A DNA stretch of 64,000 nt from Candidatus Dojkabacteria bacterium (GTDB lineage: Bacteria > Patescibacteriota > Dojkabacteria > SC72): contig JBMNHC010000001.1 in NCBI GenBank assembly GCA_050950165.1, forward strand, positions 389,738-453,737. The letters run 5' to 3'. Numbering within the stretch: the stretch's first letter is position 1; each line of letters begins with the position of its first letter. Both the position numbers and the translations under genes were made by a program. Under the pieces are notes generated by a model. It saw only the letters and a program-made list of their open reading frames with translations, searched no databases and was not told the origin of the DNA. Shown piece after piece: positions 3,001 through 36,869 of the stretch.

Positions 3001-4707
3001 GTCACCGTTATTAAAAACTATCGCTCCATTAAACAGATGCATCATACTTTTAACTTTTCTAGTATCCCAGTTATTAAGATTTTGATTGAAGGAACTAGCG
3101 CCCATAAACATACCCATCATGCCAGTTACATTGCTAGTATCCCAAGAGCCGATTTTTTGGTTAAATGCTCCAGCTTTATAAAACATATATGTCATGTCAC
3201 CAACATTTTTGGTATCCCAATTCATAGTATTATGACTTTCACCTGGTGCTTCACCATTATTAAAATTAGTGGCTTCATTAAACATATTTGACATGTCCGT
3301 AACATTGCCAGTTTGCCAACTACTAAGATTTTGATTAAACGCACTAGCATATCTAAACATTCTGAACATATTTTTAACTTTTGAAGTGTTCCAACTATTT
3401 AAAGAATTACTACTTCCGCCCGGCTCGTCACCATTATTAAAATTAGTGGCTTCATTAAACATATCTGACATATCCGTAACATTGCCTGTTTGCCAATTAC
3501 TCAGATTTTGATTAAACGCACTAGCCCCTCGAAATATATGTGCCATATTTTCAACATTTGCTGTATTCCAATTACCAATATCTTGATTAAAACTCTTGGC
3601 GTCTCTAAACGCATACCCCATATTTTTAACACTTGCTGTATTCCAATTATCGCCAAACGGTTGATTAAAAGCTTCAGCCCCATAAAACATATATATCATA
3701 TATTGAAGTTTTGCACTGCTCCAATTTATAGTGTTATGGCTTTCACCCGGTGCCTCACCGTTATTAAAAGCAGCAGCATTAAAAAACATACCACTCATAT
3801 ATCCAACATTTCCTGTATTCCAATCACCAATCTTTTGATTAAACGCACTAGCCCCTTGAAACATATATGTCATGTCACCAACATTTTTAGTATCCCAATT
3901 CATAGTGTTATGGCTTTCACCTGGTGCTTCGCCATTATTAAAATTAGTAGCTCCGTTAAACATGTAAGACATATTGGTAACCGCACCAGTATTCCACCCA
4001 CCAATGTATTGATTAAAGCTTCTAGCATCTCGGAACATAGAAGCCATATTTTTAACTTGGCTAGTATTCCACCCACCAATTGGAGAGTTAAAATTAGTAG
4101 CATCCTTAAACATGCTATTCATATTGGTTACATTGCTAGTAACCCAATTATTCATAGATGAATTACCAGTAAAATTTGTGGCACCTTCAAAAGCAGAACT
4201 CATATCAGTCACTGCTGATAAATCAGGAATATCACTAGCAGTTAGTTGCATATTTTTCATGCCTATAAAAGCTGATGCGAAACTTGACCAGGGAATAGTA
4301 CCCCATTGTTTGATTTCTTGAAGTTTAGCTCTTTCATCAGCAGCTAAATCAAGAGCATAGAAGTGGAGTGGGGCTGTTGACCTAACACAAATGTCATAGG
4401 TACCAGCCTCACCATAATCATAACTAACTCTATTACTAGAAACTGGTAGGAAATCGTCATTACAATACCAAGAGACTTCATATTCATCAGTGGCGTTTTT
4501 TAGAAAGTTTAGAGTAACTTTAGTTGACTCAGTAGCTCCCTCTACATTAGTTGTCCAACTAGTAACAAACAGATCAGAAGAGTAGGCATGGGTTGGAAAA
4601 TTCCTGTTTTTAATTAAAAAGATTGTAAAAACGATAACTAACAAAGGAGTAGTTAGTAAAAAGAATATTCTCTTCACATGTGAGTATCGGACAGTTCTCC
4701 CAATCAT
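1..4707 (-). CDS. Giant surface/adhesin-like protein with DUF285 (BspA-like, ~26-residue) repeats and Ig-like/Big domains; partial, C-terminus continues past the window start
   Basis: The minus-strand reading frame is open from the ATG at 4707-4705 to position 1. The N-terminus MIGRTVRYSHVKRIFFLLTTPLLVIVF is signal/TM-like and paralogous to the N-terminus of ORF 6264..9302. About 13 repeats of the pattern xxMFxxAxxFNQxIxxWxTxNVxxMxxMF follow, then Ig-like repeats (PPxxTIxxP). The start codon overlaps the TGA stop of the upstream ORF by 1 nt. This ORF is absent from the supplied track because it has no stop in the window. Confidence 0.8.
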   Translation of the reverse strand, partial: MIGRTVRYSHVKRIFFLLTTPLLVIVFTIFLIKNRNFPTHAYSSDLFVTSWTTNVEGATESTKVTLNFLKNATDEYEVSWYCNDDFLPVSSNRVSYDYGEAGTYDICVRSTAPLHFYALDLAADERAKLQEIKQWGTIPWSSFASAFIGMKNMQLTASDIPDLSAVTDMSSAFEGATNFTGNSSMNNWVTSNVTNMNSMFKDATNFNSPIGGWNTSQVKNMASMFRDARSFNQYIGGWNTGAVTNMSYMFNGATNFNNGEAPGESHNTMNWDTKNVGDMTYMFQGASAFNQKIGDWNTGNVGYMSGMFFNAAAFNNGEAPGESHNTINWSSAKLQYMIYMFYGAEAFNQPFGDNWNTASVKNMGYAFRDAKSFNQDIGNWNTANVENMAHIFRGASAFNQNLSNWQTGNVTDMSDMFNEATNFNNGDEPGGSSNSLNSWNTSKVKNMFRMFRYASAFNQNLSSWQTGNVTDMSNMFNEATNFNNGEAPGESHNTMNWDTKNVGDMTYMFYKAGAFNQKIGSWDTSNVTGMMGMFMGASSFNQNLNNWDTRKVKSMMHLFNGAIVFNNGDVAGGSNIPLNWEIPEVTNMYSAFVARDFNQPFGPKWNTAGVKNMSNMFRLARSFNQYIGDWDTTNVENMSYMFQNANVFNNGAEPGDESKPLNWNTTKVQSMACMFNYATVFNQPFGSNWNTTNVTNMARMFDRASGFNQDISNWDVGKVEYFTQFLNASNMQYYNYDNLLDAWSKKTVKPNRTFSAVGVYYCYAGDARSKLMTTDGWNITDAGQRCPPQNLRIDNYEVEENTTEVGTISSDSERPPITYSLVPGEGSEDNSKFTFNSDTRLLSFSQAPDYEDPQGHGDPENDPDNKNKYTIRVRATDATDLSSEKIFIITVLDVDDSPPEITITPGETMMSNAPITDTTFTVSDYYTIQNVEVDSSSIATASGIACTVESGSSTSDNFPFINDSPGTKLTLNCTITINTSGKLVLKATDDSGLSSTAFKDGYVIDTTSPTFITSNVDTTTHGLHRPVVSFEAFDAVGVARYEIVYIKDNEGEGVSTTETIDEIIYTEPGVITRTLHLDPHEPQHTVKIIAYDLVGNATLKQTVFPPDVVFNAPTILSNQAIDDTTVTITAPIDGHEIDNIVISGSASDGVTLGTCTDRNNKTTAPYDTTVTCEILGIQNSGMIMVTAQDTTNGATGYETHMYTIDTVDPVITINAPTKKKKDNITNTTITVTDNIEIHPGGIEIAASSTGMAENLECTPDAGDHNIIHCTITIIESGDLTIKATDKAGNSITETKEGYIIDRIAPKVLITSTTPINRANRAHYTLGGTCTAGDGNITIVVTEQSYSTECLADSTWSTELDLSAQPDGTVIVYASQTDDVGNKGDDTKNLTKDTIPPVVGYEDLSTNNPSPELTGTVNDKDATVTVKIEETGQIINATNNQNGTWTVSAGDINSLTTNTYNLTITATDSTQNSSEITGQLIIDITPPYITSIVPATEQSNPTNQQPIIFHATFSEPLKDDTLAANGFKIKEDGVITTAKVTEATSINNKKYALSVSGITNQKASITVLSP
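3183..3950. repeat. Near-identical intragenic DNA repeat units (~90-140 bp) inside the DUF285 repeat region of gene 1
   Basis: Segments 3183-3320 and 3861-3950 are nearly identical (catatatgtcatgtcaccaacattttt[g/a]gtatcccaattcatagt[a/g]ttatg[a/g]ctttcacctggtgcttc[a/g]ccattattaaaattagt...). Segments 3251-3350 and 3421-3520 are also nearly identical. Both pairs encode FNNGEAPGESHNTMNWDTKNVGDMTYMF-type units. Confidence 0.7.
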
Positions 4708-6065
4708 CACTCTCTCTTCTTCTCTTTATATATTTTATACCCTAGTAGTATTGCTAGTAGAACAATCAGTGCAATTAACCAGTAAACATAGTTTGGTGTA
4801 GTTACTTGTTCCAACTTTATATTAATCTCCATCTCTTCTTCTCCATCATTAATTAAGTTAATCTCTCTTTCTGATCTATACCCGTTGTATGAAATAACCA
4901 TTGTATGTAAACCAGTATCTAGATTTTCAAAATATACCTCTCCATTTTCATCAGTAATACCTGTTCTAATATCAGAGTGTATTTCAATAGTTGCACCTTT
5001 AATAGGTCTGTGTTGTTTGTCATATACCTTTACTCTTAAGTTCTTAGATTGAGTAGAAGAAGTAGGCTCTTTAACTGTATCTGAAGTATCGTCGGAAGTT
5101 TCTTCTTCCATCTGTTCTATTACAGAGGCGAAATATTTAGTAAATGGATTCCTTGGTTTTCGTATTACTGGTTGTGGGACTGGTGGTGTTATGACGGAGG
5201 GGGGAAGTACAAAGTACATTATACTATTATCCGTAAAGGTACTAGCCTCATTTAAATTACCAGCCATATCTGCAATTCTTCCAGCAGGTAAAATGAGTCT
5301 TACTGTTTCTCCAGATAGCATACCAGTTATAAATACTGTATATGTAGTATTATTAACCTTTACTATTTGAGATACCCTAGCTGTACTACTACCTAAAATA
5401 TCTAGCTCTCCCTTGTAGAAAGAAGTTACATTTACTGGTTCGGAGAAAACAGCTGTAAATTTTATTGGTTCTGTATGTGCAGGATCTGTTTGACCTTTTG
5501 CTTGATTAATTGTCACAGTTGGTGGAGTGGTATCGTATGTAACAGAGTTGTCGGTAAAGGTACATATGAGGTTGTCATTTCCAGCAAGGTCTGTAACTGA
5601 CCCTGCAGGTAGTCTTGCAACTACAGTATCTCCATCTGTTAAGTTATTTACTTCAATTTCATACCTTTTATCACCAATGTTTGTAATACTTTCTACTTGG
5701 GCAGTACTACTTCCTAAGAGTAGTACTTTCCCTTTTGTAAACGTAGCTTCATTAATAGTCTCGGAGAAAATAACTAAGAATTTTATAGAATCTTCATTAG
5801 TAGGATCACTTTGTGTTGGTGATTGATTAACAGAAACAGTTGGAGGAGCTGTGTCTTTCTTTAATGTTGCTTCTGCATTCCCTTCGTTTCCTACAGAATC
5901 TGTTTGTTTTACTGCTACAGGAATATCTCCATCAGGGTAGGTGGAAAGATCTAGAGGTAGGGTCCATCTATTTTCATTACATGTTGCTAAGTATGGTTGT
6001 GTAATCATGATGACAATTGGGTCTTTATCACCAGACGTGCATCCACCTGATAGTGTGTAGCTCAT
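4707..6065 (-). CDS. C-terminal fragment of the second giant DUF285 surface protein: Ig-like repeats, CarboxypepD_reg-like domain and a C-terminal TM anchor. Same frame as ORF 6264..9302.
   Basis: Supplied ORF. Repeated motifs TPPTVxxNQ...TxPIxFxxxFSE are Ig-like. The stretch LRVKVYDKQHRPIKGATIEIHSDIRTG...YNGYRSEREINL is a carboxypeptidase-regulatory-like fold. The hydrophobic tail YVYWLIALIVLLAILLGYKIYKEKKRE is a TM anchor. It is homologous to the corresponding region of gene 1..4707. Confidence 0.75.
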   Translation of the reverse strand: MSYTLSGGCTSGDKDPIVIMITQPYLATCNENRWTLPLDLSTYPDGDIPVAVKQTDSVGNEGNAEATLKKDTAPPTVSVNQSPTQSDPTNEDSIKFLVIFSETINEATFTKGKVLLLGSSTAQVESITNIGDKRYEIEVNNLTDGDTVVARLPAGSVTDLAGNDNLICTFTDNSVTYDTTPPTVTINQAKGQTDPAHTEPIKFTAVFSEPVNVTSFYKGELDILGSSTARVSQIVKVNNTTYTVFITGMLSGETVRLILPAGRIADMAGNLNEASTFTDNSIMYFVLPPSVITPPVPQPVIRKPRNPFTKYFASVIEQMEEETSDDTSDTVKEPTSSTQSKNLRVKVYDKQHRPIKGATIEIHSDIRTGITDENGEVYFENLDTGLHTMVISYNGYRSEREINLINDGEEEMEINIKLEQVTTPNYVYWLIALIVLLAILLGYKIYKEKKRE

Positions 6066-6263: not shown

Positions 6264-9200
6264 TTAGTCATTCAATACATCAACAGTTGTATCTGAGTGT
6301 ATTGTGATATCGTCTGCAAAAAGATCAACCCCATCAGTAACTGTAATTGTGACATCAGTGATATCGCTGTTACTTGATTTGGTAGGTGCAGAGATAACTA
6401 TTTTTGGAGCCTCTGTGTCATGGAAATATTTTTGTAAATTCATCCCTTCATATATCTGTTCAGAGGCATCTTTTTCCTTAGCATGAACTTCAAGCATACC
6501 AGTCTCTTGAATACCGTGTATCTGGCATTCTACAGAAGTAATGTAAGGGAAAACTGGAGTCTCATCTATGTTGTCATCTTTATCTTTACAGTTGCGAAGC
6601 TGTGCTCCGGAAGCGGCTGCACCTCGGAGGTCAATATCAGTAATGATGTTGCCTGGAGTGGATGTAGTAATTTTTACAGTTGTATTATTGATAGGGTTTC
6701 TACTAATTATGGTAGGAGCAGTTATTTCAATTGTTGGTGGGAAATAGATTCTTCTGGATGTGTAGTTATCGGTATTGTCATACGCCTTAATTTCTATTGA
6801 ACGAGGAACCTGATGAGGATCTAAGTCGATCTCATCGTAGGAAAGTGTTCCTGGACGATCTTCAATTGAAATGATTGTGGCTTCCTCTGATACACCCTCT
6901 CCGTCATTATCTTTAAAGAAAATGATTTCATATCTCTGTATTCCTGTAGGGTCTTCAGCTTTAAAGGAAACACTTGGATTATCTATACTGTATGGTGTAG
7001 CAGTATTAACATTGGCTACAGTAAAGGTTGGACCAAATGTATCAATGATATATCCAGGCTCTTCAGCAGTAGTAGTGTAACCTGCTTCATCAGTAGCATA
7101 AAGGACTAAGCTACCAGAGGTGGTAATGGTGACCTTACATCTTATAGTTAAATGGTTTGTAGGGTCAGGTTCATCACATCTATATGGGAAATCTGGTGAT
7201 GATGTGTTTCTTACTCCCCAACACTGGATGCTATTAGGCTGAATGGCAGCAACACTTGATGTATGTAATCCTACTGATTTAATTGAGAATCTATCACTTA
7301 CTTCAAACTCTGTATCCGTTATATTCCCCTTGTTTTTCTTAATCCCTGGGTAAATTGTAATAACTGGTCCTACATCATCAATATCGTTGACGGTAATAAC
7401 GAAGACTGCTTCCGAGTACTGTTTAACTACATCAGTGACTCGTACTCTAATGGTATATTTGTTTCCATCTTCTGGATCAGCTGAACCTTGTGGGTCTTCA
7501 AAGTCAGGTGGTTGTGAGAATGCTAATAGTCCAGTAGATGAGTTAAGAGCAAATTTAAGATTGTCTTCACTTCCTTGCCCAGGAACAAGGGTGTAGATTA
7601 GAGATGAAGTCTCTTCGTCTTCTGCAGTGATAGTGCCTACCTCTGTTGTATTTTCATCAATCTCTGTGTAGTCCAAATCTATATTAAATGGAGGACAGTT
7701 TTGACCAGCATCATTGATAGTCCAAGTGTAAGTAGTACTTAACTTGTTCCTAGCTGTTCCTGCATTACAGTAGTAAACACCATCTGCACCGAATGTTAGA
7801 CCCAATTTGACATTTTGTTCACTCCAACTGTTCAATAGCCTGTCATAGTTATCTGATACTAGTCCAGAGTCGCTGAGAAAGAGATCAAAATTTGTAACAC
7901 CTCTAACATTCCAAGTTGATATGTCTTGATTGAATGCCTTTGCGTTGTTGAACAAAGAGCTCATATTACTAACCTTTGAGGTATCCCAATTTCCAATAGG
8001 TTGGTTAAATGAGGTTGCACCTTTAAACATATCTGACATAGAGGTAACTCCTGATGTCACCCAATTGTTAAGAGGTTGATTAAAAGCTACAGCTCCTTCA
8101 AATAGTTTGCTCATAGTATATACCTGAGATGTATTCCAACTGTTAAGTGGTTTGTTGAATGAAGAGGCACCTCTAAACATACTTGCCATATCTCTTAGTC
8201 TGTTAGTCTCCCAAGTACTAATATCTTGGTTAAACGAAGTAGCTAAAGAAAACATAGCTGTCATGTAAATAACCTTTGATACATCCCAATCACCAATTGG
8301 TTGATTGAAATTAGTAGCCCCAGCAAACATACCTGACATATTCGTTACATTTCCTGTTTTCCATTTCTTAATATCTTGGTTAAAAGCTGTTGCACTATAG
8401 AACATGTATCTCATGTTGTTGACATTTGAAGTATTCCATTCCCCTATGGGTTGATTAAAAGCATTGGTACTACCAAACATATATGACATATCTTCAACAT
8501 TTTTAGTATCCCAATTCTCAATATTTTGATTAAATGCTCTAGCTACATAGAACATACAATTCATATTTGTAACATTTCCAGTATTCCAACCCCCAATATT
8601 TCGATTAAATGATTGAGCGTTCCTAAACATTCTTGACATATCAGTTACATTGTCAGTATCCCAGCCACTAATGTCTGCATTGAATTTACCACTATTCTCA
8701 AACATACTTTTCATATTAGTCACATTGATGGTATCCCAAGAGTTCATAGAATTGTTTCCAGTAAAGTTTTGGAGACCACCGAAAGCACCAGACATATCTG
8801 TTACTCTTGACAGATCAGGTGCATCAGAAGCAGTTAACTGCATATTACCCATACCCCAGAAAGATGATGCAAAACTTGACCATGGAATGGTACCCCACTG
8901 TTTAATCTCTAATAGTTTTGCTCTTTCATTTGCAGATAAGCCTGTAGATTGGAAAGATATTGGATAGATAGTCTGTATACAAATTCTATAAGTACCGGGT
9001 GTTTGAAAGTCATGAACGACTTTGTCATAATAAATCACTTCATCAATAGAGCCATTACATTCCCAGTCAACTTCATAGCTACCTGTTGCTCCTGTTAACT
9101 GGAAGTTTAAGGTAACTGTTGAATCAGTTGGATCAGTTATATTAGTTTGCCATTCGGTTACGAATAGATTAGGGGCATAGGCATAGGTTTTAAAAGGATG

Positions 9201-9302
9201 TTTTTTAACAAGGAAGGTAGTAAACCCAGCAACTAGAAGAAGGGTAGTCAAGATTAAGAGAAATCTTTTTGTATATGAATGTTGGACAGTTTTTGTAATC
9301 AT
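6264..9302 (-). CDS. N-terminal 1012-aa portion of the second giant DUF285 surface protein, ending at an in-frame TAA; probably an interrupted gene or pseudogene
   Basis: Supplied ORF. It has an N-terminal signal/TM and about 14 DUF285-type repeats (FNQDISxWxTxNVTNMxxMF), then Ig-like domains. The 198 nt between its TAA (6264-6266) and the next ATG (6065) are stop-free in the same frame and encode sequence homologous to gene 1. Confidence 0.8.
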   Translation of the reverse strand: MITKTVQHSYTKRFLLILTTLLLVAGFTTFLVKKHPFKTYAYAPNLFVTEWQTNITDPTDSTVTLNFQLTGATGSYEVDWECNGSIDEVIYYDKVVHDFQTPGTYRICIQTIYPISFQSTGLSANERAKLLEIKQWGTIPWSSFASSFWGMGNMQLTASDAPDLSRVTDMSGAFGGLQNFTGNNSMNSWDTINVTNMKSMFENSGKFNADISGWDTDNVTDMSRMFRNAQSFNRNIGGWNTGNVTNMNCMFYVARAFNQNIENWDTKNVEDMSYMFGSTNAFNQPIGEWNTSNVNNMRYMFYSATAFNQDIKKWKTGNVTNMSGMFAGATNFNQPIGDWDVSKVIYMTAMFSLATSFNQDISTWETNRLRDMASMFRGASSFNKPLNSWNTSQVYTMSKLFEGAVAFNQPLNNWVTSGVTSMSDMFKGATSFNQPIGNWDTSKVSNMSSLFNNAKAFNQDISTWNVRGVTNFDLFLSDSGLVSDNYDRLLNSWSEQNVKLGLTFGADGVYYCNAGTARNKLSTTYTWTINDAGQNCPPFNIDLDYTEIDENTTEVGTITAEDEETSSLIYTLVPGQGSEDNLKFALNSSTGLLAFSQPPDFEDPQGSADPEDGNKYTIRVRVTDVVKQYSEAVFVITVNDIDDVGPVITIYPGIKKNKGNITDTEFEVSDRFSIKSVGLHTSSVAAIQPNSIQCWGVRNTSSPDFPYRCDEPDPTNHLTIRCKVTITTSGSLVLYATDEAGYTTTAEEPGYIIDTFGPTFTVANVNTATPYSIDNPSVSFKAEDPTGIQRYEIIFFKDNDGEGVSEEATIISIEDRPGTLSYDEIDLDPHQVPRSIEIKAYDNTDNYTSRRIYFPPTIEITAPTIISRNPINNTTVKITTSTPGNIITDIDLRGAAASGAQLRNCKDKDDNIDETPVFPYITSVECQIHGIQETGMLEVHAKEKDASEQIYEGMNLQKYFHDTEAPKIVISAPTKSSNSDITDVTITVTDGVDLFADDITIHSDTTVDVLND

Positions 9303-24988: not shown

Positions 24989-27900
24989 ATGTTAAAAACT
25001 TACTGCTCGAAAGTAGCAAAATTTGTATTCATTTTGTTGGTACTACCCTTCTTTTTTGCTACTTATAAAGTATATGCACAAACCTCTACAACTGTTAATT
25101 TCCAAGGAAAAATTGTTAGAAATGATACAGGTCATGAAGGATTAAACGTTACAACTGGAAACCCTGCCTGTGTCTTAGCTGGTCAAGACACATGTGATTT
25201 CCAAGTTAAATATTACTCAGCACAGAGTGCGGGAACACTCTATCTAACTGAAACATTTCTAAACAAGGAGATAGGAGATTACGGTGGAGTGTTTAATCTC
25301 TCTTTAGGCTCTGGAACAATGACTCCAGGCATTTACTCTACATTAGACCAAGTCATTAACAACTCTAATTCGGTATACATAGAGATCCTTTTCTCTCCTG
25401 CAGGTAATGAAACATATACAGAAACATTCTCAAGAATGCCACTTCAAGCAGCACCATATGCCATTAGATCTAAATATGCAGGGGTAGCACAAGGAGCATT
25501 TAAGTTTGAAAATGCAGCAAACGCTACTGGATATACAGGAAGTGATGGTATGGTTTACTACGATACTACAGATGGTGTATTGAAACTCTACTCAGGCGGA
25601 ACATGGGTCCCTCTTGCAACAGGCTCAAGTGGAAGTAATATCTGGCAAGGGGCAAGTATCTCATCATTTAGTCACTACCCATCTCAATTCTTAGAGACAA
25701 CAGGTATAGCTACATTAGCTAACTTCGGTGTAGATACAACAGAAAACAGAGCATGGGTACACGGTGCATCATCAAGAACAGGATTTTCAGTTTACTCTAA
25801 CTACAACGGTAGTACAGACTGGCCACTTGTGACATTTAAAGCAGATGCAAGTGGTTTTACTAGCTCAATATTACAATTAATCCAAGATGGAACTGGAAGT
25901 ATCTTAGAAGGATATCAAGGAAGTAACAAAGTATTCGATGTAGACAACAGAGGAGATATGCACCTTTCATCAGACGGTACACTCTATCTAGAACCTTTTA
26001 CATCTCTACCTAGCTCATCAGATCTCTATCCTGCCTCAGGAGAAGGTTGTCTTTACTCTGTGGGTGGAAACATATATTGGGATGGTGCATGTAATGGTAG
26101 TTCTCCAAAGATGCTTAATGCAACTGCTACATCTCTTTGGACAGATGCTGGAACATTTACCTACCTTACCTCTACTTCAGACAACTTAGTTCTTGGTGGT
26201 AGTACAGTAGCTACTGCAAGATTCTTCTTCGATATGACAGCAGCGAGTGGTAGATATTTTAAAGTGGATAATTATAATAACTCGGAGACTCTGTTTACAA
26301 TAGATAGTAGCGGAAATATTGGTATTGGAACTGCAAGTCCTACACACAAATTAGATATTGCAGGTACAAACTCTTCAATAGCTAATGCAACAGGAGATAT
26401 TACGATTACTCCTGCACAGAATTTAATAATTAGTAGTGGAAAAGTTGGGATAGGGACATCTACACCAAGTTCACTTCTTTCGATAGGTTCTTCAAGTCAA
26501 TTCCAGGTAGATGGTAGTGGAGATATTGTAAAGATAAAGGGATTAACTTACTCATGGCCTTCAGCACACACAACAAACGGAGTATTGGTAAATAATGGGA
26601 GTGGTACTCTCTCATGGTCAACAGTATCAGGACTGGGAGGAGTTACTGGTACAGGTAGTAGTGGACAGATAACGTTTTGGAATGGGACTTCAAGTATTAC
26701 AGGAGATAACGGTTTCTGGTGGGATAATACAAACAAGAGACTAGGTATTGGAACGAGTACTCCTCAAGCATCAATAGATATTGCAGGAGCAACATCAGAG
26801 ATATCTAATACGTATGGAAACATTTCAATACTACCATATCAATCACTAGTAGTTACAGGAGGTAGTACAGCTCCTACAGCTATGTGGGTATACAAGACAG
26901 GTAGTGCAACATCAGGAGATATTTTTGGACTTAGAATAGAGACAAACCAGACTGTAGCAGGAGCTCTAACAGTATTTGGAAACAGGATTGTAAATAGGGC
27001 CACTCATACTAGTGGTACATTGGCAGGATTACAAGCTAATAGTACACAGATACAGCTAGAGGGTAATGGTGGTACTACAAACTATGTAGAGGGTCTAACT
27101 TCTAATATAACTGTATCTACAGGAGCAATAGCTTCTAATGTACACCTATTAAGAATATTTTCACCAACTAACTCAGGAACAATTAATCACCTAAAGGGTA
27201 TTCTCATTAACAACATGAATGCAGGTTCTTCTTCTAACTACTCCATATATTCAGAGGGAGGTACTATGTATCATGCGGGTAATGTGGGGATAGGGACTAG
27301 TAGTCCTAGTGGACTTTTGGATGTATCTAATTCTTTTTATACAGGGACAGGAATAATTCTTGTCAGACCTCAGGATAGTAGTAATGAAGGTGGAGAAATA
27401 CGACTACTTGGAGCTGGTTCAAATGCCTCAGTTTTTATAGATAATTATGCAGGTATATTGAGAATTCTCCCATCAAGTGGAACTGTGGCAGTGGAAGTTG
27501 GTGGAACTGTTAATGCTCATAGTGTATTTTGGGGAGGAAGTGGGAGTAGAACAGAAGCAAGAGATGATATAGGGTTAAGAGGTGATGCAGGTGCACGAAG
27601 TGGCTTTTATGAAGCACATAATCCTTCTCCTGCAGCAAACTGGTATCCTGGAGCAACTGGCTGGCAACATTTCATTGATGTAAGACATAGTAATATTACT
27701 AATAACTATGCATTACAGATAGCAGGTTCTTTCTTTAATCAAGAATTATACTTCAGAAAAACAGCAAATAGTCCTACAACAGGATGGAACAAGTTTGTAT
27801 ATGCGGATAGTAATGGTAATGTTAGTATTGCCAATGCTGCCTCTGGTGCGACTCTTACTGTTGGTAGAGCAGCTGGACAGCCAAATATTAAATCATCTAC

Positions 27901-30355
27901 AGACTGGTTTATGATAGATTCAACATCTAATCCTGTATCTATTAATCACTATGTAGCTCAAAATGTTCTGTTAGCATATGGGGGAGGAAGGGTGGGTATT
28001 GGTATGAATGGTCCTAGTCAGAAGTTAGATGTAGCAGGAAGTATTCGTTCTACTGGTCATTTATTTTTAAATAGGGGAGACCCTACGATTTTCTTACAGG
28101 ACACAGACCATAGAAGTGCTATGGTTTATGCTAATAATAATACTTTTTATATCCTCCGAGGTAGTGGTGTAAATTCTACCACTTGGACTATGTACAATGG
28201 GCAGTGGCCACTTGAAATTAATCTAGAGAATAATGATGCTCTTTTTGGAGGTAAGATTACATCTATAGGTGATGTAGATGTATATAAATATATAACAATT
28301 AATAAACAAGCGAGTAATGCTTGGTTTTCTTTTAGACAATACTTTTCTTCAGGTACATATATAGAGGTTGATACTCCTGGAGGATATCGTGGTATCTCTA
28401 CTTTTGCTTCAAGTCAAAAGTATAAGAAAAATATAGAGGATTTAGAAATTGATAGTAATCTTATATATAGCTTACGACCTGTTAGTTTTAATTGGAAAAC
28501 AGATACAGATGATACACCAAAGACATTTGGTTTAATCGCTGAAGAAGTAGAACAACATATACCAGAGTTAGTTAGGTATAGAGAGAATGGAGAGATTCTT
28601 TCAGTTATATATGAGTTAATAAGCGTATTGAATATGAAAGAGTTGCAGAAACATGAGAGATATATAAAGGAGATTCAAGGGACTTTGGCATTTATTGGTA
28701 CTCCAGTTGGAAATACAAATATATTAGAACGTATAGAAAATCTAGAAAAAATATATAGTGGTAAAGAAGAAAATTATCAAGTAGAAGGTGTTGTAGTTAG
28801 AGGTTCTCTTGTTAGTATTAATACTACTACGCCATGGTCTGTTATTGCTGCTTACGAAGGAAAGGATTCTATTGTTGGTGTAGTTAGTACTAATCCAAGT
28901 GCAGTAATGGATGCAGATGGTGGGTTCCAGATAGGATATGCTACAAAACCAATTTATCAGGACGAGAAAGCTCCCATTGCTCTAGTAGGAACAGCTCCAA
29001 CTTTAGTTACCTCTTTAAATGGTCAGATTGAAATAGGAGACAGTATTGGTGTCTCTAGTTTAGCTGGATTTGGTGCGAAGATGACTCTAGCTGGGTATAC
29101 AGTAGGAAAAGCTTTAGAAAGATTAGATAGTAACAACTGTTCTTCAGTAAGTAATATCAATGCTATTAATTGGCCTGAAGATGACAGTAGGAATTCTCTA
29201 AAACCTTGTTATCTACTCCCTGACGGTACTGTTGTGGGTAAAATCATGGTTGCTATTCAACCATCTTGGTTCGATCCTAAAACCTTCGTGTCTATAGGCG
29301 AAGTCTCTTCCCCAGGCTGGTATAGAATATCTCAAAGTAATGAAAATAGTAGTGCTAATGTAAAAATATCTAACAGTACAGTAGGATCATTACAAAATAT
29401 TAATATGCTAATAGATAAGAATAACATTAATACACTCTCTAACTTTACATCAGGAAACTCTAACATTACTAAATCTAGACTAACAACTGTAGGAAATACT
29501 ACATATTTAGAAATATATATTGAAAATGTAAACAACAATATATTAACTGTTAAAGTAGAAGGCCAAGGATGGAGTGGAACAAACATATCTAAAGTAGAAG
29601 AAACATTTACAGTAAAAGAATACGCATTAGAAGGTGTGCTCCTAGGAGTAAGTGATACATTCTCTGTATCTAAAGAAGGAAGCCTACTAACCTCAATGGT
29701 AAATTCGGACATTGGTAATAGCGGAAGCAGATGGAACGATATATATACTAAGGGAACAATCAGACTAGGAAGTGGAAATAGCGAAGGAGGAATTAGATAC
29801 AATATTGAAAAACAGAGATTAGAATTCTCTAATGATGGAATCAATTGGATAGCTATGGGAGACCTAACATCTAACCTAGTAATATCTCCGGAGTATAGTG
29901 GAGCAATATTGTATGCTGACGGAAGTGATAATAGTGGTAGAATGACATCAGACGCATTAGAAGAGAATGGATCATTTACAAACTACTACGAGTGGAAATC
30001 AGATAGAGACACCCTACAAGACTATGACATATTAGTACGAATTGTATTACCAGATGACTTTGTTAGCTGGAATGAAAACGCAATATCTCTTAACTTCATG
30101 ACAGAAAACTCTGCATCAGTATCTAATAACAAAGTAGAAATGACACTAATAGATAGTAGTGGAACAGATGTAGAAGTAAAAGATGGAATAAGTAAATTAC
30201 CAGGAGTATGGGAGAGAATGACAATAAAGAGTGTAGACATTGATAAATGTCAAAGTGCAGGACAACTCTGTACCCTCAAACTCTCACTGTTTTCTAAAGA
30301 TAGCTACTACTCAAGAGTAGGAGATATTACTCTAAACTATAACAGAGGACTGTAG
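24989..30355 (+). CDS. Giant (1788 aa) secreted tail-fibre-like surface protein with an internal peptidase S74 (intramolecular chaperone) domain
   Basis: A signal peptide is followed by repeated V/IGIGTxxPxxxLDV/IAG motifs typical of phage tail-fibre-like proteins. At about nt 28411-28700 the stretch SSQKYKKNIEDLEIDSNLIYSLRPVSFNWKTD...FGLIAEEVEQHIPELV...ISVLNMKELQKHE matches the S74 chaperone-of-endosialidase consensus, with a Ser...Lys dyad at i/i+5. About 550 aa follow this domain. Confidence 0.7.
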   Translation: MLKTYCSKVAKFVFILLVLPFFFATYKVYAQTSTTVNFQGKIVRNDTGHEGLNVTTGNPACVLAGQDTCDFQVKYYSAQSAGTLYLTETFLNKEIGDYGGVFNLSLGSGTMTPGIYSTLDQVINNSNSVYIEILFSPAGNETYTETFSRMPLQAAPYAIRSKYAGVAQGAFKFENAANATGYTGSDGMVYYDTTDGVLKLYSGGTWVPLATGSSGSNIWQGASISSFSHYPSQFLETTGIATLANFGVDTTENRAWVHGASSRTGFSVYSNYNGSTDWPLVTFKADASGFTSSILQLIQDGTGSILEGYQGSNKVFDVDNRGDMHLSSDGTLYLEPFTSLPSSSDLYPASGEGCLYSVGGNIYWDGACNGSSPKMLNATATSLWTDAGTFTYLTSTSDNLVLGGSTVATARFFFDMTAASGRYFKVDNYNNSETLFTIDSSGNIGIGTASPTHKLDIAGTNSSIANATGDITITPAQNLIISSGKVGIGTSTPSSLLSIGSSSQFQVDGSGDIVKIKGLTYSWPSAHTTNGVLVNNGSGTLSWSTVSGLGGVTGTGSSGQITFWNGTSSITGDNGFWWDNTNKRLGIGTSTPQASIDIAGATSEISNTYGNISILPYQSLVVTGGSTAPTAMWVYKTGSATSGDIFGLRIETNQTVAGALTVFGNRIVNRATHTSGTLAGLQANSTQIQLEGNGGTTNYVEGLTSNITVSTGAIASNVHLLRIFSPTNSGTINHLKGILINNMNAGSSSNYSIYSEGGTMYHAGNVGIGTSSPSGLLDVSNSFYTGTGIILVRPQDSSNEGGEIRLLGAGSNASVFIDNYAGILRILPSSGTVAVEVGGTVNAHSVFWGGSGSRTEARDDIGLRGDAGARSGFYEAHNPSPAANWYPGATGWQHFIDVRHSNITNNYALQIAGSFFNQELYFRKTANSPTTGWNKFVYADSNGNVSIANAASGATLTVGRAAGQPNIKSSTDWFMIDSTSNPVSINHYVAQNVLLAYGGGRVGIGMNGPSQKLDVAGSIRSTGHLFLNRGDPTIFLQDTDHRSAMVYANNNTFYILRGSGVNSTTWTMYNGQWPLEINLENNDALFGGKITSIGDVDVYKYITINKQASNAWFSFRQYFSSGTYIEVDTPGGYRGISTFASSQKYKKNIEDLEIDSNLIYSLRPVSFNWKTDTDDTPKTFGLIAEEVEQHIPELVRYRENGEILSVIYELISVLNMKELQKHERYIKEIQGTLAFIGTPVGNTNILERIENLEKIYSGKEENYQVEGVVVRGSLVSINTTTPWSVIAAYEGKDSIVGVVSTNPSAVMDADGGFQIGYATKPIYQDEKAPIALVGTAPTLVTSLNGQIEIGDSIGVSSLAGFGAKMTLAGYTVGKALERLDSNNCSSVSNINAINWPEDDSRNSLKPCYLLPDGTVVGKIMVAIQPSWFDPKTFVSIGEVSSPGWYRISQSNENSSANVKISNSTVGSLQNINMLIDKNNINTLSNFTSGNSNITKSRLTTVGNTTYLEIYIENVNNNILTVKVEGQGWSGTNISKVEETFTVKEYALEGVLLGVSDTFSVSKEGSLLTSMVNSDIGNSGSRWNDIYTKGTIRLGSGNSEGGIRYNIEKQRLEFSNDGINWIAMGDLTSNLVISPEYSGAILYADGSDNSGRMTSDALEENGSFTNYYEWKSDRDTLQDYDILVRIVLPDDFVSWNENAISLNFMTENSASVSNNKVEMTLIDSSGTDVEVKDGISKLPGVWERMTIKSVDIDKCQSAGQLCTLKLSLFSKDSYYSRVGDITLNYNRGL

Positions 30356-33167: not shown

Positions 33168-33791
33168 ATGGGACTAAAAGAAGCCTTAGGAGATAACAAA
33201 AAATTTCTCTTCTTAGCTTTTGCTTTACTCATTGTTAGTGTAATAATGATGCTCTCTTTAAACTCTAATAAATATTCTCCCATAAGACCATTAGGAGAAA
33301 GCAAAAAAACATATACTGAACCAGAACAAGTTATGCAAGAAGGTGTGGATTACAGCATTACAATAAAGACATCAGTAGGAGATATCTATGTAGACCTCTA
33401 TGAAAGTAAAGCTCCTAAGAATGTAAATAGCCTTCTCTTTTTAATAGGTGAACGATACTACGAAGACCTTACGTTCCATAAAGTAATTAAAGACTTTGTA
33501 ATACAAGCAGGAGATACTGAAGGAGATGGAAGTGGAGATCCAGGATATACCGTTACTATGGAGAATACAAAAGAGCCTTTCTCAGACTATACACTTGGAA
33601 TGGCAAATGCATCTCAATTTTTCATAGTTCTTCCTAACTCCAACAAAGACGATTTTAATGGTAAGTTTAGTCCCATAGGGAGGGTAACATCAGGCTTCGC
33701 AGTAGTCAATGCAATATCAAAAGTAGAAGTATCCAAAAACTATAAGCCCAAAAACGACATTACCATTAACTCCATACAAATTACAGAATAA
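33168..33791 (+). CDS. Membrane-anchored cyclophilin-type peptidyl-prolyl cis-trans isomerase
   Basis: N-terminal TM. Cyclophilin motifs FHKVIKDFVIQAGD and GMANA...QFFIV are present. Confidence 0.8.
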   Translation: MGLKEALGDNKKFLFLAFALLIVSVIMMLSLNSNKYSPIRPLGESKKTYTEPEQVMQEGVDYSITIKTSVGDIYVDLYESKAPKNVNSLLFLIGERYYEDLTFHKVIKDFVIQAGDTEGDGSGDPGYTVTMENTKEPFSDYTLGMANASQFFIVLPNSNKDDFNGKFSPIGRVTSGFAVVNAISKVEVSKNYKPKNDITINSIQITE

Positions 33792-33851: not shown

Positions 33852-34547
33852 ATGGAGTCTTCAGTAAGAACAAAAAATATCTTAACTCTCTTTGCATTCT
33901 TTACAATGGGCTTTACTGTGGGAGTGGGGCTGGTCAGTGTAGAGAAGGAGAATCTCTTAGTTCTGCTACATCAGTTTAGGGGGGAAAGAACCTTAGGCGT
34001 GGCTGTTGAGCAGGAAACGGAGGACGTTGAAGAAGAGAAAGAAGAAGTAGTGGAGCCAGAAGTAGATCTCTGTGCAGTAAGAGTAGATATTGCAGGGGCA
34101 GTGCAAAATCCGGGGGTTTACTGTTTGGAAAAGGATAGTGCTGTAGTGGATGCGGTACAGAAAGCTGGAGGGTTTACTAGGCAGGTAGCGAAAAAGTACG
34201 TAGGAATGAGAGTAAATCTAGCTTCTCTGCTAGTAGACAATGGAAAGGTGTACATACCGCTTGAGCAAGACTCCATCTGTCAACTACTAGAGTTTAAGCT
34301 TCCCAAAGAAGTAGAAGAGATAGTGCAGACGAAAAAAACTGAACAGCAAACAACAGATACCCCTAAGGAGTGTGTCAATATAAATAGTGGAAGTAAAAGC
34401 GAGCTAGAAACTCTACCTGGCGTAGGACCATCTACAGCACAGAAAATAATAGATAATAGGCCTTACAAAGCATTAGAAGATCTATTAAATGTTAGTGGAA
34501 TAGGGGAAGTGACATATGCAAAACTTAAAGAAAAGATATGTTTATAA
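33852..34547 (+). CDS. comEA: Competence protein ComEA (TM, SLBB and helix-hairpin-helix DNA-binding domain)
   Basis: N-terminal TM. SLBB-like segment VRVDIAGAVQNPGVYCL. Tandem HhH at the C-terminus (ELETLPGVGPSTAQKIIDNRPY...LLNVSGIGEVTYAKLKEKI). Confidence 0.8.
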   Translation: MESSVRTKNILTLFAFFTMGFTVGVGLVSVEKENLLVLLHQFRGERTLGVAVEQETEDVEEEKEEVVEPEVDLCAVRVDIAGAVQNPGVYCLEKDSAVVDAVQKAGGFTRQVAKKYVGMRVNLASLLVDNGKVYIPLEQDSICQLLEFKLPKEVEEIVQTKKTEQQTTDTPKECVNINSGSKSELETLPGVGPSTAQKIIDNRPYKALEDLLNVSGIGEVTYAKLKEKICL

Positions 34548-36067
34548 ATACAATAAAATATATATCTTGCAGAATATTAACACTAATACTGTTTTTCAAA
34601 GATGCTAAGATAGTTCCAATCTGTTTTACAATTCTGTTTTTACATATTTCAATCCAAACAAAGATAGAAAACGAAATATTTTCAAATTTCAATTTTAATT
34701 ACCAACTACTTTCCTCCAAAATCCCCATTCTCCTGTTTATCATCCCAATATTCCTTGTTTCACAGAAGGAAACCTCCATTGTTCACAATCTAGCAACATC
34801 TGCTCTTTTAGGTATAGCCATACTCTTTCTTGTTCTTTCTTCAATCTCTCTTACATATTCCCAATTTCTTTCCAAAAGAGAAAAATTCCAAGGTTTCATA
34901 GATAAAAATATCATCTTAGAAGGTAAAATACTCTCTACTGAGGATACAGATAAATATATACTGGGTAGTAGAGGAGATGAAGTAGGAAAGATACTCCTAA
35001 AATTTAATCAATTTACGACACTACATCCAGGAGTAGAGTGTAAAATACATGGTAAAGCTGTGGAACCTAAGAGTTTTGAAGATTTTGACTACAAAAAATA
35101 TCTTTACAGAAAAGGAATCTATGGAATATTAGAAGTTACTAAATATGAATGTAGTGAAAACACTTTTAATCTCTTAATCCTTAGATCAAAACTAGAAAGA
35201 ATAGTATTTAAGAACCTCTCCGAACCAGAATCCTCTCTGTTAATTGGAATCCTTGTTGGAAGTAAACAAGTATTTACAAAAGATTTTAACCTAGCATTAC
35301 AAAATTCAGGACTCTCTCATATAATCTCGGCCTCTGGATACAATGTTGCATTAGTAGCATCTATTGTAGATAGATCTTTTGGTAAAAATGGAAATAAGTT
35401 GGTAGCTTTAGTTAAAATATTCTTAATTTGGACCTTTGCAATCTTTGCAGGACTCTCATCATCACTTGTTAGAGCCTCTACAATGGCTACCATACATCTC
35501 TTTGTTCAACTTTTGGGCAGAGATATCTCTAGAGGCATCTCCATACTTCTTTGTGCTACAGTTTTAGTACTTCTTAACCCCTTCATACTCTATGATATCG
35601 GCTTCCTACTCTCATCTAGTGCTACTGTAGGACTAATATTCTTTCCTAAATGCTTCAATATTAAATCTGTATGGATTAAAGACTCTTTTCTACCTGTAAT
35701 TACATGTACAATATTTACTTTACCAGTCATCATATATTTCTTTAGTAAAATCTCCTTAGTTTCAATATTAACTAACCTCATCGCAATACCGATAGTTCAA
35801 TACACAGTAGGATTTGGAGTAGTAGTAATATTTTTAAATAGCATAAGCAATATATTTAGTTTTCTTTTCTTCATACCATATGTTCAACTTAACCTCTTTA
35901 GATATCTAGTAGAGATATCCTCTCTAATCCCATCTGTGGTGATAGAGTTTGACCCTAAGACTCTCTGCTTGATTATGTTTCTGAGCATATTTATCTTTAC
36001 TTTGTTAAAATATCCCATATCTAATGAAAATTACTACCTTAAAAAAGCTAAATCTCTCACTTCTTAA
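34538..36067 (+). CDS. comEC: ComEC/Rec2 DNA-uptake channel: N-terminal DUF4131 plus polytopic competence domain; lacks the C-terminal metallo-beta-lactamase domain
   Basis: Multiple TM helices and the conserved competence-domain segment LALQNSGLSHIISASGYNVALVASIV. The stop lies in an overlap with the next ORF. Confidence 0.75.
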   Translation: MFINTIKYISCRILTLILFFKDAKIVPICFTILFLHISIQTKIENEIFSNFNFNYQLLSSKIPILLFIIPIFLVSQKETSIVHNLATSALLGIAILFLVLSSISLTYSQFLSKREKFQGFIDKNIILEGKILSTEDTDKYILGSRGDEVGKILLKFNQFTTLHPGVECKIHGKAVEPKSFEDFDYKKYLYRKGIYGILEVTKYECSENTFNLLILRSKLERIVFKNLSEPESSLLIGILVGSKQVFTKDFNLALQNSGLSHIISASGYNVALVASIVDRSFGKNGNKLVALVKIFLIWTFAIFAGLSSSLVRASTMATIHLFVQLLGRDISRGISILLCATVLVLLNPFILYDIGFLLSSSATVGLIFFPKCFNIKSVWIKDSFLPVITCTIFTLPVIIYFFSKISLVSILTNLIAIPIVQYTVGFGVVVIFLNSISNIFSFLFFIPYVQLNLFRYLVEISSLIPSVVIEFDPKTLCLIMFLSIFIFTLLKYPISNENYYLKKAKSLTS

Positions 36068-36869
36068 CATATTACAATTTTCCCTTTGGGTAGTAATATT
36101 CTTGATATATCTCCTTAGTGTAAAACCTTCTGATACAGTAGTATTCTTTAATATTGGGCAAGGAGATGCAATTCTAATACAGGAAGGAGATATACAGTTA
36201 TTAGTAGATGGAGGTAATGGTAGAGAGATACTGTATGAACTACCTAAATATATGCCATTCTATGACAGACATATCGAATATATATTGCTAACTCATCCTC
36301 ACGATGATCATCTAGTAGGCCTATTAAATGTCGTACAGAGATATTCTGTAGGAGAGATTCTCTACTATCCAGTCTGCTACAACAACCCAAACTATAAGAC
36401 CCTGATATCTGGCAATACAAAAGAAAGAACAATTTCAGCTGGCGACGCTATAAGCCTAAATACATTAAAAATAAATATATTGTGGCCTAGAGCAGGGGAG
36501 TTAACAGAACAGAACTGCTTTAAGTCTTTTGATGGTAATATAAATAACGATTCTGTAGTACTAGAATTTGAGTTTTTAAACAAAAACTTCCTACTTATGG
36601 CAGATGCAGAGAAAAAAGTAGAAGACATTCTAGTTACAGAAAATATTCTAACCAAAAAATATGATATCCTTAAAGCAGGACATCACTGCTCTAAAACCTC
36701 CTCTAGTGAAACCTTCCTAAAAGCCATCTCTCCCAAGTATGCCATATGTTCAAGTGGAGAAGGGAATAAGTTTGGACACCCAAGTAGTGAAACTCTGCAA
36801 AATTTCTCCAACCTTTCTGTTCAATATCTGATAACATATGAAGAAGGAAACATACAGATTAAGCAGTAG
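36024..36869 (+). CDS. Metallo-beta-lactamase-fold protein corresponding to the ComEC C-terminal domain, on a separate ORF in the +1 frame
   Basis: Motifs GQGDAILIQ...LLVDGG, THPHDDHLVGL (HxHxDH) and KAGHHCS. It overlaps the comEC ORF by 44 nt, and an A6 run at 36041-36046 lies inside the overlap. Confidence 0.75.
   Translation: MKITTLKKLNLSLLNILQFSLWVVIFLIYLLSVKPSDTVVFFNIGQGDAILIQEGDIQLLVDGGNGREILYELPKYMPFYDRHIEYILLTHPHDDHLVGLLNVVQRYSVGEILYYPVCYNNPNYKTLISGNTKERTISAGDAISLNTLKINILWPRAGELTEQNCFKSFDGNINNDSVVLEFEFLNKNFLLMADAEKKVEDILVTENILTKKYDILKAGHHCSKTSSSETFLKAISPKYAICSSGEGNKFGHPSSETLQNFSNLSVQYLITYEEGNIQIKQ

Follow-up and report, generated by a model that had tools for sequence, protein, structure and literature searches.

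Gene content of the locus

The analysed DNA (the window) is a 64,000-nt stretch of contig JBMNHC010000001.1 from a Candidatus Dojkabacteria bacterium (GenBank assembly GCA_050950165.1). At 24989-30355 on its forward strand lies an open reading frame (ORF) with an ATG start and a product of 1788 aa. A first-pass annotation had described this product as a tail-fibre-like surface protein with an internal S74 chaperone domain; it is the subject of this report and is referred to as the fibre protein. An identical 1788-aa protein was found on a 9.4-kb Logan contig (run SRR31061295), possibly not independent of the window's source. The features of the fibre ORF and of the two genes that follow it are collected in Table 1.

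Table 1. Features of the fibre gene and its downstream neighbours (window coordinates).
Feature	Position (nt)	Strand	Remarks
Putative fibre-precursor ORF, whole	24989..30355	+	1788 aa; locus syntenic in 16 Patescibacteria genomes
Sec-type signal peptide, aa 1-30	24989..25078	+	Predicted cut VYA/QT; sequence inspection; orthologues laid out alike
N-terminal beta-rich domain, aa ~28-140	25070..25408	+	Weak similarity to NCBIfam NF053851 (Bdellovibrio MAT fibre N-domain)
Fibre shaft, aa ~141-1140	25409..28408	+	Five [VIL]G[IV]G[TM]xxPxxx[LI] motifs; hypervariable among orthologues past aa ~624
Peptidase_S74 intramolecular chaperone domain, aa 1141-1260	28409..28768	+	Ser1141 and Lys1146; predicted scissile bond Ala1140/Ser1141
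Module A, aa 1261-1435	28769..29293	+	phi29-gp12-type (Peptidase_G2-like) autochaperone fold with Cys-containing insert (predicted)
Module B1, aa ~1439-1550	29303..29638	+	Beta-sandwich starting PGWYRIS; residues 1-111 of the AlphaFold2 model, pLDDT ~76-91 per 10-residue block; conserved in orthologues
Module B2, aa ~1551-1788	29639..30352	+	Short fibre-like stretch (IGNSGSRWNDIYTKG...), then C-terminal ~155-aa beta-sandwich
Laminin_G_3 (LamG) protein, 929 aa	30359..33148	+	N-terminal membrane anchor; start 3 nt past the fibre stop; possible partner
Cyclophilin peptidyl-prolyl isomerase	33168..33791	+	N-terminal hydrophobic anchor; conserved in the cluster (synteny); might be a folding helper

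Domain architecture of the fibre protein

Peptidase_S74 (PF13884) was the one and only Pfam family in the fibre ORF. It matched aa 1141-1196 (nt 28409-28576) over model positions 1-58 of 58, with an E-value of 7.6e-11 and 42.6 bits against a gathering cut-off of 22. In alignments with C-terminal S74 proteins the full domain extends to ~aa 1260, residues 1197-1260 aligning with the helical tails of C-terminal S74 proteins, 6F45 and 7DC3. For an assessment of the catalytic residues, the S74 region of the fibre protein was aligned with 14 S74 domains recovered by homology search (alignment A1); Ser1141 and Lys1146 (FA-SSQKYK-KNI) were invariant among the 15 domains. The Ser and Lys columns of the A1 profile landed on the SDxxxK motifs of solved S74 domains: 6F45 (phage S16 distal fibre; E 1.6e-15; SDRRIK), 7DC3 (MYRF ICA domain; E 4.9e-8; ADLRAK at the motif in the deposited chain), 8JOV (E 5.4e-8; SDERLK), 8HQZ (T5 pb1; E 7.1e-7; SGIEYK) and 3GUD (GA-1 appendage; E 1.6e-3; SDERHK). 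By these alignments the S74 domain is genuine and its catalytic residues are intact. The first-pass annotation had proposed such a domain with a conserved Ser-x4-Lys dyad, and the Pfam match and the alignment with characterised chaperone domains agree with it. It had also placed about 550 residues after the domain; 528 were counted beyond the full domain and 592 beyond the Pfam match. A phmmer search with aa 1101-1788 against PDB sequences gave no useful match.

The extension past the S74 domain was split into modules by homology mapping. Module A was modelled as a monomer, as were all structures reported here, with AlphaFold2 (AF2) at a predicted local distance difference test (pLDDT) score of 89.4. 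Foldseek ranked 3GQH first among PDB entries (prob 1.0, E 3.7e-3, template modelling (TM) score 0.41/0.47) and a 'Preneck appendage protein' first in BFVD (E 6.9e-7); the capsid-decoration (DUF2190) fold, a related one, likewise scored. A profile of diverse module-A relatives (A6) matched 3GQH/3GQK, 6QZ9 and 3SUC at E 6e-4 to 5e-3, aligned on DFAEYF, whereas a profile of close module-A homologues only (A3) matched no solved structure. In Pfam, no family including PF11962 (Peptidase_G2) matched module A at E<=10; PF11962 did match 2 of 17 close module-A homologues (best E 1.5e-4), and P0129 and P0158 carry it. The D-x-A-E motif of the family aligns with D692-F-A-E695 of gp12, where the 3GQH chain starts at D692 and 3SUC has Gln at 695. 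The corresponding residues of the window protein are G1258-K-E-E1261, with the Glu retained and the cleavage-site Asp replaced by Gly. From sequence and model, module A is identified as a putative phi29 gp12 (Peptidase_G2-type) autochaperone that is degenerate at the cleavage Asp. The first-pass annotation had missed that the extension opens with a second chaperone of another family.

The first ~130 residues of module A form a widespread domain, which begins G-G-D-[YFL]-A-E and usually stops 10-12 residues before the C-terminus. Module A is ~55-63% identical to near-C-terminal domains of many fibre-like proteins that lack S74, some of them with Collar or Gp34_trimer. Two of its closest relatives, C-terminal domains of other fibres, are on contigs labelled Omnitrophota.

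Module B spans aa 1439-1788. In its AF2 model the B1 sandwich comes first. A stretch that monomer modelling could not resolve and a brief fibre-like segment follow, and a second sandwich closes the module; the last ~130 residues reached pLDDT >90. With the whole module-B model, Foldseek retrieved carbohydrate-binding module (CBM) family 61 (2XOM, E 7e-5), CBM11, CBM15, PP2 lectin and the C-terminus of the K2-2 tailspike. At least one of the sandwiches is CBM/lectin-like as modelled. The search itself names neither; the alignment length suggests that the terminal sandwich is the part matching these folds. B2 also forms the end of other fibres (P0036, P0039 and P0040). The terminal sandwich, ending VRVGDITLNYN, is also present in a small Bacteroidota protein from outside the candidate phyla radiation (CPR; P0041 of Tenacibaculum aiptasiae, 253 aa).

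The signal peptide is the sole stretch of the fibre protein with a Kyte-Doolittle score >1.6. For the domain that follows it, NF053851 (Bdello_MAT_N) gave E 4.6e-5 with 23 bits (range 19-23), short of the curated cut-off of 60. The same family was the first or second match for 8 of 9 orthologous N-termini, each below the cut-off, and scored 16.5-24 bits in the 7 of 8 orthologues that matched. In the shaft, fibre motifs begin at aa 444, 486, 585, 766 and 1002, and a PHROG tail-fibre match covers aa 430-474. The 'many' VGIGTxxP...LD motifs reported in the first pass come to five, where 0.0015 would be expected in shuffled sequence.

Comparison of orthologous fibres

When species-representative genomes were searched with the C-terminal module, 16 loci (L006-L021) were recovered, all from Patescibacteria metagenome-assembled genomes (MAGs); the titles read Candidatus Dojkabacteria for 7 of them, 'uncultured Candidatus Saccharibacteria' for 8 and 'Patescibacteria group' for 1. 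For comparison of architectures, 15 informative fibres of 1583 to >3031 aa were used. The slot right before module B is occupied by an S74 domain in 7 of these 15 genomes, always with S-x4-K, and by a G2-like domain in the other 8, with D-x-[AS]-E intact in 6. None of the 15 orthologues has both; the combination of S74, A and B was found in the window protein alone. This exchange of one chaperone type for the other in the slot had escaped the earlier annotation. The retention of an extension past S74 in relatives, which it had proposed to check, was found in the 7 species genomes and in P0002-4, P0035, P0040, P0162 and P0165.

In the fibres of two Dojkabacteria MAGs, L008 and L009, identity is 90% across the N-terminal 680 aa and 89% across module B, while the central shaft and the chaperone cannot be aligned. 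The chaperone is G2-like in L008 and S74 in L009. This is a clean cassette exchange, in which shaft and chaperone move together. The two ends of the gene are therefore conserved, and between them lies an exchangeable cassette with the chaperone as its last part. A predicted autoproteolytic chaperone between the variable shaft and module B is a feature conserved across Dojkabacteria.

The nearest relative of the window protein is the 1633-aa fibre of Dojkabacteria HGW-1 (L007). The two are 72% identical in the N-terminal 624 aa, ~28% in the shaft (aa 444-1015), 78-84% in the S74 region and 64% in module B. Since L007 has no module A, this module is interpreted as an in-frame insertion, and the window protein is a predicted recombinant that carries both chaperone types. 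When aa 1236-1264 (nt ~28694-28780) were compared with L007 and L009, the insertion was seen to begin after '...GTPVGN'. The inserted NLEKIYSGKEENYQV is similar to ELEKIYNAEEENYNI, with which S74 ends in L009, and shares part of its length with the chaperone motif DLAENYQI. The alignment suggests that a crossover in ENY microhomology may have removed the Asp of module A. A sister Dojkabacteria fibre allele was rejected as the source of module A: those alleles are 45-48% identical to it, compared with 55-63% for the C-terminal domains of other fibres.

Internal S74 domains in other proteins

An exhaustive search with the S74 domain as query yielded 14,776 representative proteins, the best 149 of which were used for counts of architectures. 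In 135 of these 149 the last S74 domain lies <=60 residues from the C-terminus, and in 8 it is followed by >150 residues; ~17 carry two or three S74 domains per chain. Overall, an internal copy is present in roughly a sixth of the closest S74 relatives. Ser and Lys are kept in 37 of 39 internal copies, as compared with 146 of 150 terminal ones. Internal S74 domains are accordingly a minority but recurrent architecture, in which the catalytic residues appear to be maintained. The internal position had been presented in the first pass as a departure from characterised fibres, in which the domain is the extreme C-terminus; it is not unprecedented, given these relatives and MYRF. Full-text literature searches returned no account of bacterial fibres whose chaperone domains are internal or in tandem, and no mention of fibres of this kind from Patescibacteria.

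Several proteins (P0163, P0164, P0168, P0169, P0173, P0177, P0191 and others) have two to three S74 domains with long fibre-like stretches between them, and nearly all keep Ser and Lys. P0163 (1818 aa) has S74 domains at 580-697, 1142-1256 and 1693-1806; in P0164 (7103 aa) three copies lie ~2350 aa apart. By their layout these proteins look like polyproteins of several fibres. The reverse order of chaperones was seen in P0194 (1178 aa), with a G2-like domain at 579-700, S74 at 845-955 and a further 223 residues.

Genomic neighbourhood

The window has ~35% GC and, around the fibre cluster, consists of housekeeping genes, among them those for S1, a Clp ATPase, a RadA-like protein, Rho, an M23/LysM peptidase, leucyl-tRNA synthetase (LeuRS), arginyl-tRNA synthetase (ArgRS), UvrA and tRNAs. 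ComEA and ComEC lie downstream of the cyclophilin, so that the neighbourhood given in the first-pass annotation (a LamG membrane protein 3 nt after the fibre, then an anchored cyclophilin, ComEA and ComEC) was found again in full. The order M23, LeuRS, fibre, LamG protein, cyclophilin, ComEA is common to all 16 loci, and was identical in L002, a GenBank metagenome contig (GCA_900174595.1, FWPV01011917.1). The LamG gene follows the fibre in L006-L021 save L008, where the available DNA ends ~100 nt past the fibre stop. L002 and L023 have this gene too; L022 lacks it.

In L002 the fibre gene is called as two (777 and 742 aa), and at L002:5860-6000 the downstream frame continues upstream with fibre-like sequence. 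This is read as one gene with a frameshift, from a sequencing error or in a pseudogene. L022, the locus of P0040, is a distant relative with a 583-aa fibre (S74, coiled coil, B2) that is followed by cyclophilin, ComEA, ComEC, metallo-beta-lactamase and ArgRS genes. At L023, the locus of P0036, a B2-terminated fibre precedes a multi-LamG protein of >2320 aa.

The associations of S74, G2-like, Collar and Gp34 domains are typical of phage fibres, and the L002 orthologue is frameshifted. A tail fibre of a prophage, phage or contractile injection system, or an assembly or gene-fusion artefact joining two genes, is nevertheless highly improbable. In every genome examined the gene was located between those for LeuRS and ComEA, no phage genes were present among the window ORFs scanned, and the product has a signal peptide. 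The insertion of module A preserves the reading frame and its model is of high confidence, and the continuous architecture is repeated in 15 separate assemblies, because of which a fusion or assembly artefact was rejected. Prophage origin was ruled out by synteny and the neighbouring genes. The fibre gene is a cellular gene and not a phage gene, and is probably chromosomal and vertically inherited.

Apart from the fibre cluster, ComEC is split in the window into an ORF with DUF4131 and Competence domains (34538-36067, forward strand) and a metallo-beta-lactamase ORF (36024-36869, forward strand), which overlap by 44 nt. The split is probably real in this lineage, because L022 has it too. Two likely surface proteins are encoded on the reverse strand, one of 1012 aa with four DUF285 matches (6264-9302) and one of 452 aa with Big_3_3, Big_12 and CarboxypepD_reg (4707-6065).

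Proposed processing of the fibre precursor

The fibre ORF probably encodes the precursor of a cellular Dojkabacteria surface fibre, which would cleave itself at the internal S74 domain into a fibre and a chaperone-lectin fragment. In its build the protein resembles phage tail fibres and the MAT adhesins of Bdellovibrio. The precursor would be exported via Sec and its signal peptide removed. By analogy with S74 domains in phage fibres, the internal S74 domain would trimerise and template the folding of the upstream shaft, and the Ser1141/Lys1146 dyad would then cut between Ala1140 and Ser1141. The cut was placed there because of its position in the Bdellovibrio fibre Bd3182, in which the mature tip was traced to A781 and self-cleavage occurs at the catalytic S782 (PMC10769870). 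The first product would be a fibre of ~1110 aa (aa 31-1140), with the variable region directly upstream of the cut as its distal end. The second would be a 648-aa fragment of S74, the degenerate G2-type chaperone and two beta-sandwiches, at least one of them lectin-like. The fibres of K1F, T5 and Bd3182 show a ligand-binding surface just upstream of the S74 cut (PMC10769870). A mature fibre with its specificity at the corresponding place would fit the hypervariable region that ends there.

Self-cleavage is favoured over a purely structural role of the S74 domain because internal copies keep the dyad as strictly as terminal ones. If the internal S74 and G2-like domains acted as trimerisation and folding nodes only, the chain would stay single and uncut, and ligands would be bound at its distal tip by the lectin-like module B. 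We regard this as unlikely, although it has several observations on its side. Lectin/CBM-like folds such as those of module B are typical of fibre tips, and S74 domains and lectin-like heads occur as alternative C-termini in phage fibres (PMC12143355); a specificity-determining tip should, however, show the opposite of the observed pattern, in which module B is among the most conserved parts and the shaft is hypervariable. B2 ends P0036 directly with no chaperone, and the G2-like cleavage motif is degenerate in L006, L020, P0001 and the window protein. In contrast, Ser and Lys, which a purely structural role would not require, are retained in 37 of 39 internal copies and in all 7 orthologues with S74 followed by B, and the internal S74 domain of MYRF does cleave (PMC3742443).

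For module B in the self-cleaving precursor, our preferred guess is that it forms a trimeric cap that binds glycans or assists in assembly, perhaps together with the LamG membrane protein. Module B is conserved and linked with the LamG gene, whereas a specificity tip should vary; this points, speculatively, to a conserved function, for instance as a cap, in assembly or as a lectin in its own right.

CBM-like domains can bind the wall polymers of their own cell. Module B, perhaps with the LamG protein, might in this way hold the precursor at the cell surface while the S74 cut sheds the N-terminal fibre into the medium, a polarity like that of MYRF, which is anchored by the portion that follows its ICA domain (PMC3742443). 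Co-conservation of module B with the adjacent gene for a membrane-anchored LamG protein would suit such an arrangement, which we consider improbable. L022 has S74 followed by B2 without a LamG gene, and the conserved N-terminal domain is similar to the MAT N-domain, which comes after the signal peptide in fibres located on the surface of predators. Downstream of S74 no transmembrane helix was found, and outside the signal peptide no 19-residue window had a Kyte-Doolittle score >1.13; a membrane anchor of the MYRF kind was ruled out by the absent transmembrane segment.

Several points weigh against the self-cleaving precursor. All of its processing steps are drawn from conserved residues and analogy, and with monomer models the trimers of shaft, S74 and module B are presumed. 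Cutting off module B would seem wasteful if it were the receptor-binding tip. The cleavage-site Asp is missing in 2 of 8 G2-type orthologues (L006, L020), in P0001 and in module A of the window protein, because of which some junctions may not cleave. Similarity to the MAT N-domain (16.5-24 bits) is far under the cut-off of 60. The proposed roles of LamG protein and cyclophilin are assigned from gene order, and L022 has no LamG gene.

We tentatively put forward a wider possibility, for which the odds are below even. Dojkabacteria, and probably other bacteria too, may make fibres as self-splitting polyproteins, in which an S74 or gp12/G2-type domain serves as an exchangeable internal junction. 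The Sec-exported precursor would then give a variable adhesive fibre and a conserved trimeric lectin-like module that acts separately, as a removable tip cap or as a partner of the LamG protein. If so, the proteins that have two to three S74 domains and reach 7,103 aa (P0163, P0164) would stand at the far end of the range, with several fibres released from a single polypeptide.

Comparison with known systems

Dojkabacteria are tiny, uncultured CPR bacteria, and CPR bacteria live attached to other cells. To our knowledge, almost nothing is known of the mechanism of this attachment. The fibre gene is a conserved core-locus candidate for it, with a hypervariable cassette at the place where known S74 fibres bind their ligands.

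The mosaic adhesive trimer (MAT) proteins of Bdellovibrio form fibres on the surface of this predator and combine a signal peptide and a conserved N-domain with a trimeric shaft; 13 of 21 have a terminal S74 domain, which was shown to self-cleave (PMC10769870). Like the S74 subgroup of these proteins (e.g. Bd3182), the window protein is cellular, has a ~110-130-aa beta-rich domain after the signal peptide and belongs to a host that lives on other cells. Shared as well are a long shaft with recurring G-x-x-x-P-x-x-x-L loop motifs, an S74 domain with S-x4-K and a mosaic, recombining architecture. MAT S74 proteins end in S74, whereas 528 residues follow it in the window protein. The motif spacing is off by one residue (VGIGTxxP, compared with V-G-G/N-pi-x-x-P in MAT), and the C-terminus is conserved and the middle variable, whereas in MAT proteins the C-terminal part varies. 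The hosts differ too, a monoderm-type CPR bacterium on the one side and a deltaproteobacterial-type predator on the other. MAT fibres are distant analogues of the window fibre and may be related to it.

MYRF is until now the only characterised protein with an internal S74 domain. Its trimerisation-dependent self-cleavage at the S74/ICA domain parts the N-terminal trimer from the C-terminal portion (PMC3742443, PMC8326128). The internal position and the long C-terminal region after S74 are common to MYRF and the window protein. MYRF is, however, a eukaryotic transcription factor of the endoplasmic reticulum membrane with a transmembrane helix after the ICA domain. The window protein is bacterial and extracytoplasmic, with no helix in the membrane after S74 and with a second chaperone and CBM/lectin-like sandwiches downstream.

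The phage chaperones of the K1F endosialidase, T5 pb1 (8HQZ), S16 gp37 (6F45) and GA-1 gp12 (3GUD) belong to the same family, have the Ser/Lys dyad and are placed after a shaft. In these phages the domain occupies the very end of the chain and is discarded, whereas it is internal in the window protein and in 7 orthologous genomes. For module A, the phi29 gp12 autochaperone (Peptidase_G2, PF11962; 3GQH, 3SUC) is the best PDB and viral fold match, with the family motif D-x-A-E on D692-F-A-E695. Unlike gp12, module A is internal, is preceded by a helix instead of a beta-helix, has Gly in place of the Asp and contains an extra Cys-containing loop of ~35 residues.

The components of the fibre protein (S74, gp12-type chaperone, shaft and lectin-like domain) are known; their arrangement, the internal interchange and the conservation at a CPR core locus appear to be undescribed. 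Two unrelated self-cleaving chaperones interchange at an internal position, where they can stand in tandem and where internal copies keep their catalytic residues. This suggests that bacteria use autoproteolytic chaperones as processing junctions, beyond their use as disposable C-terminal caps.

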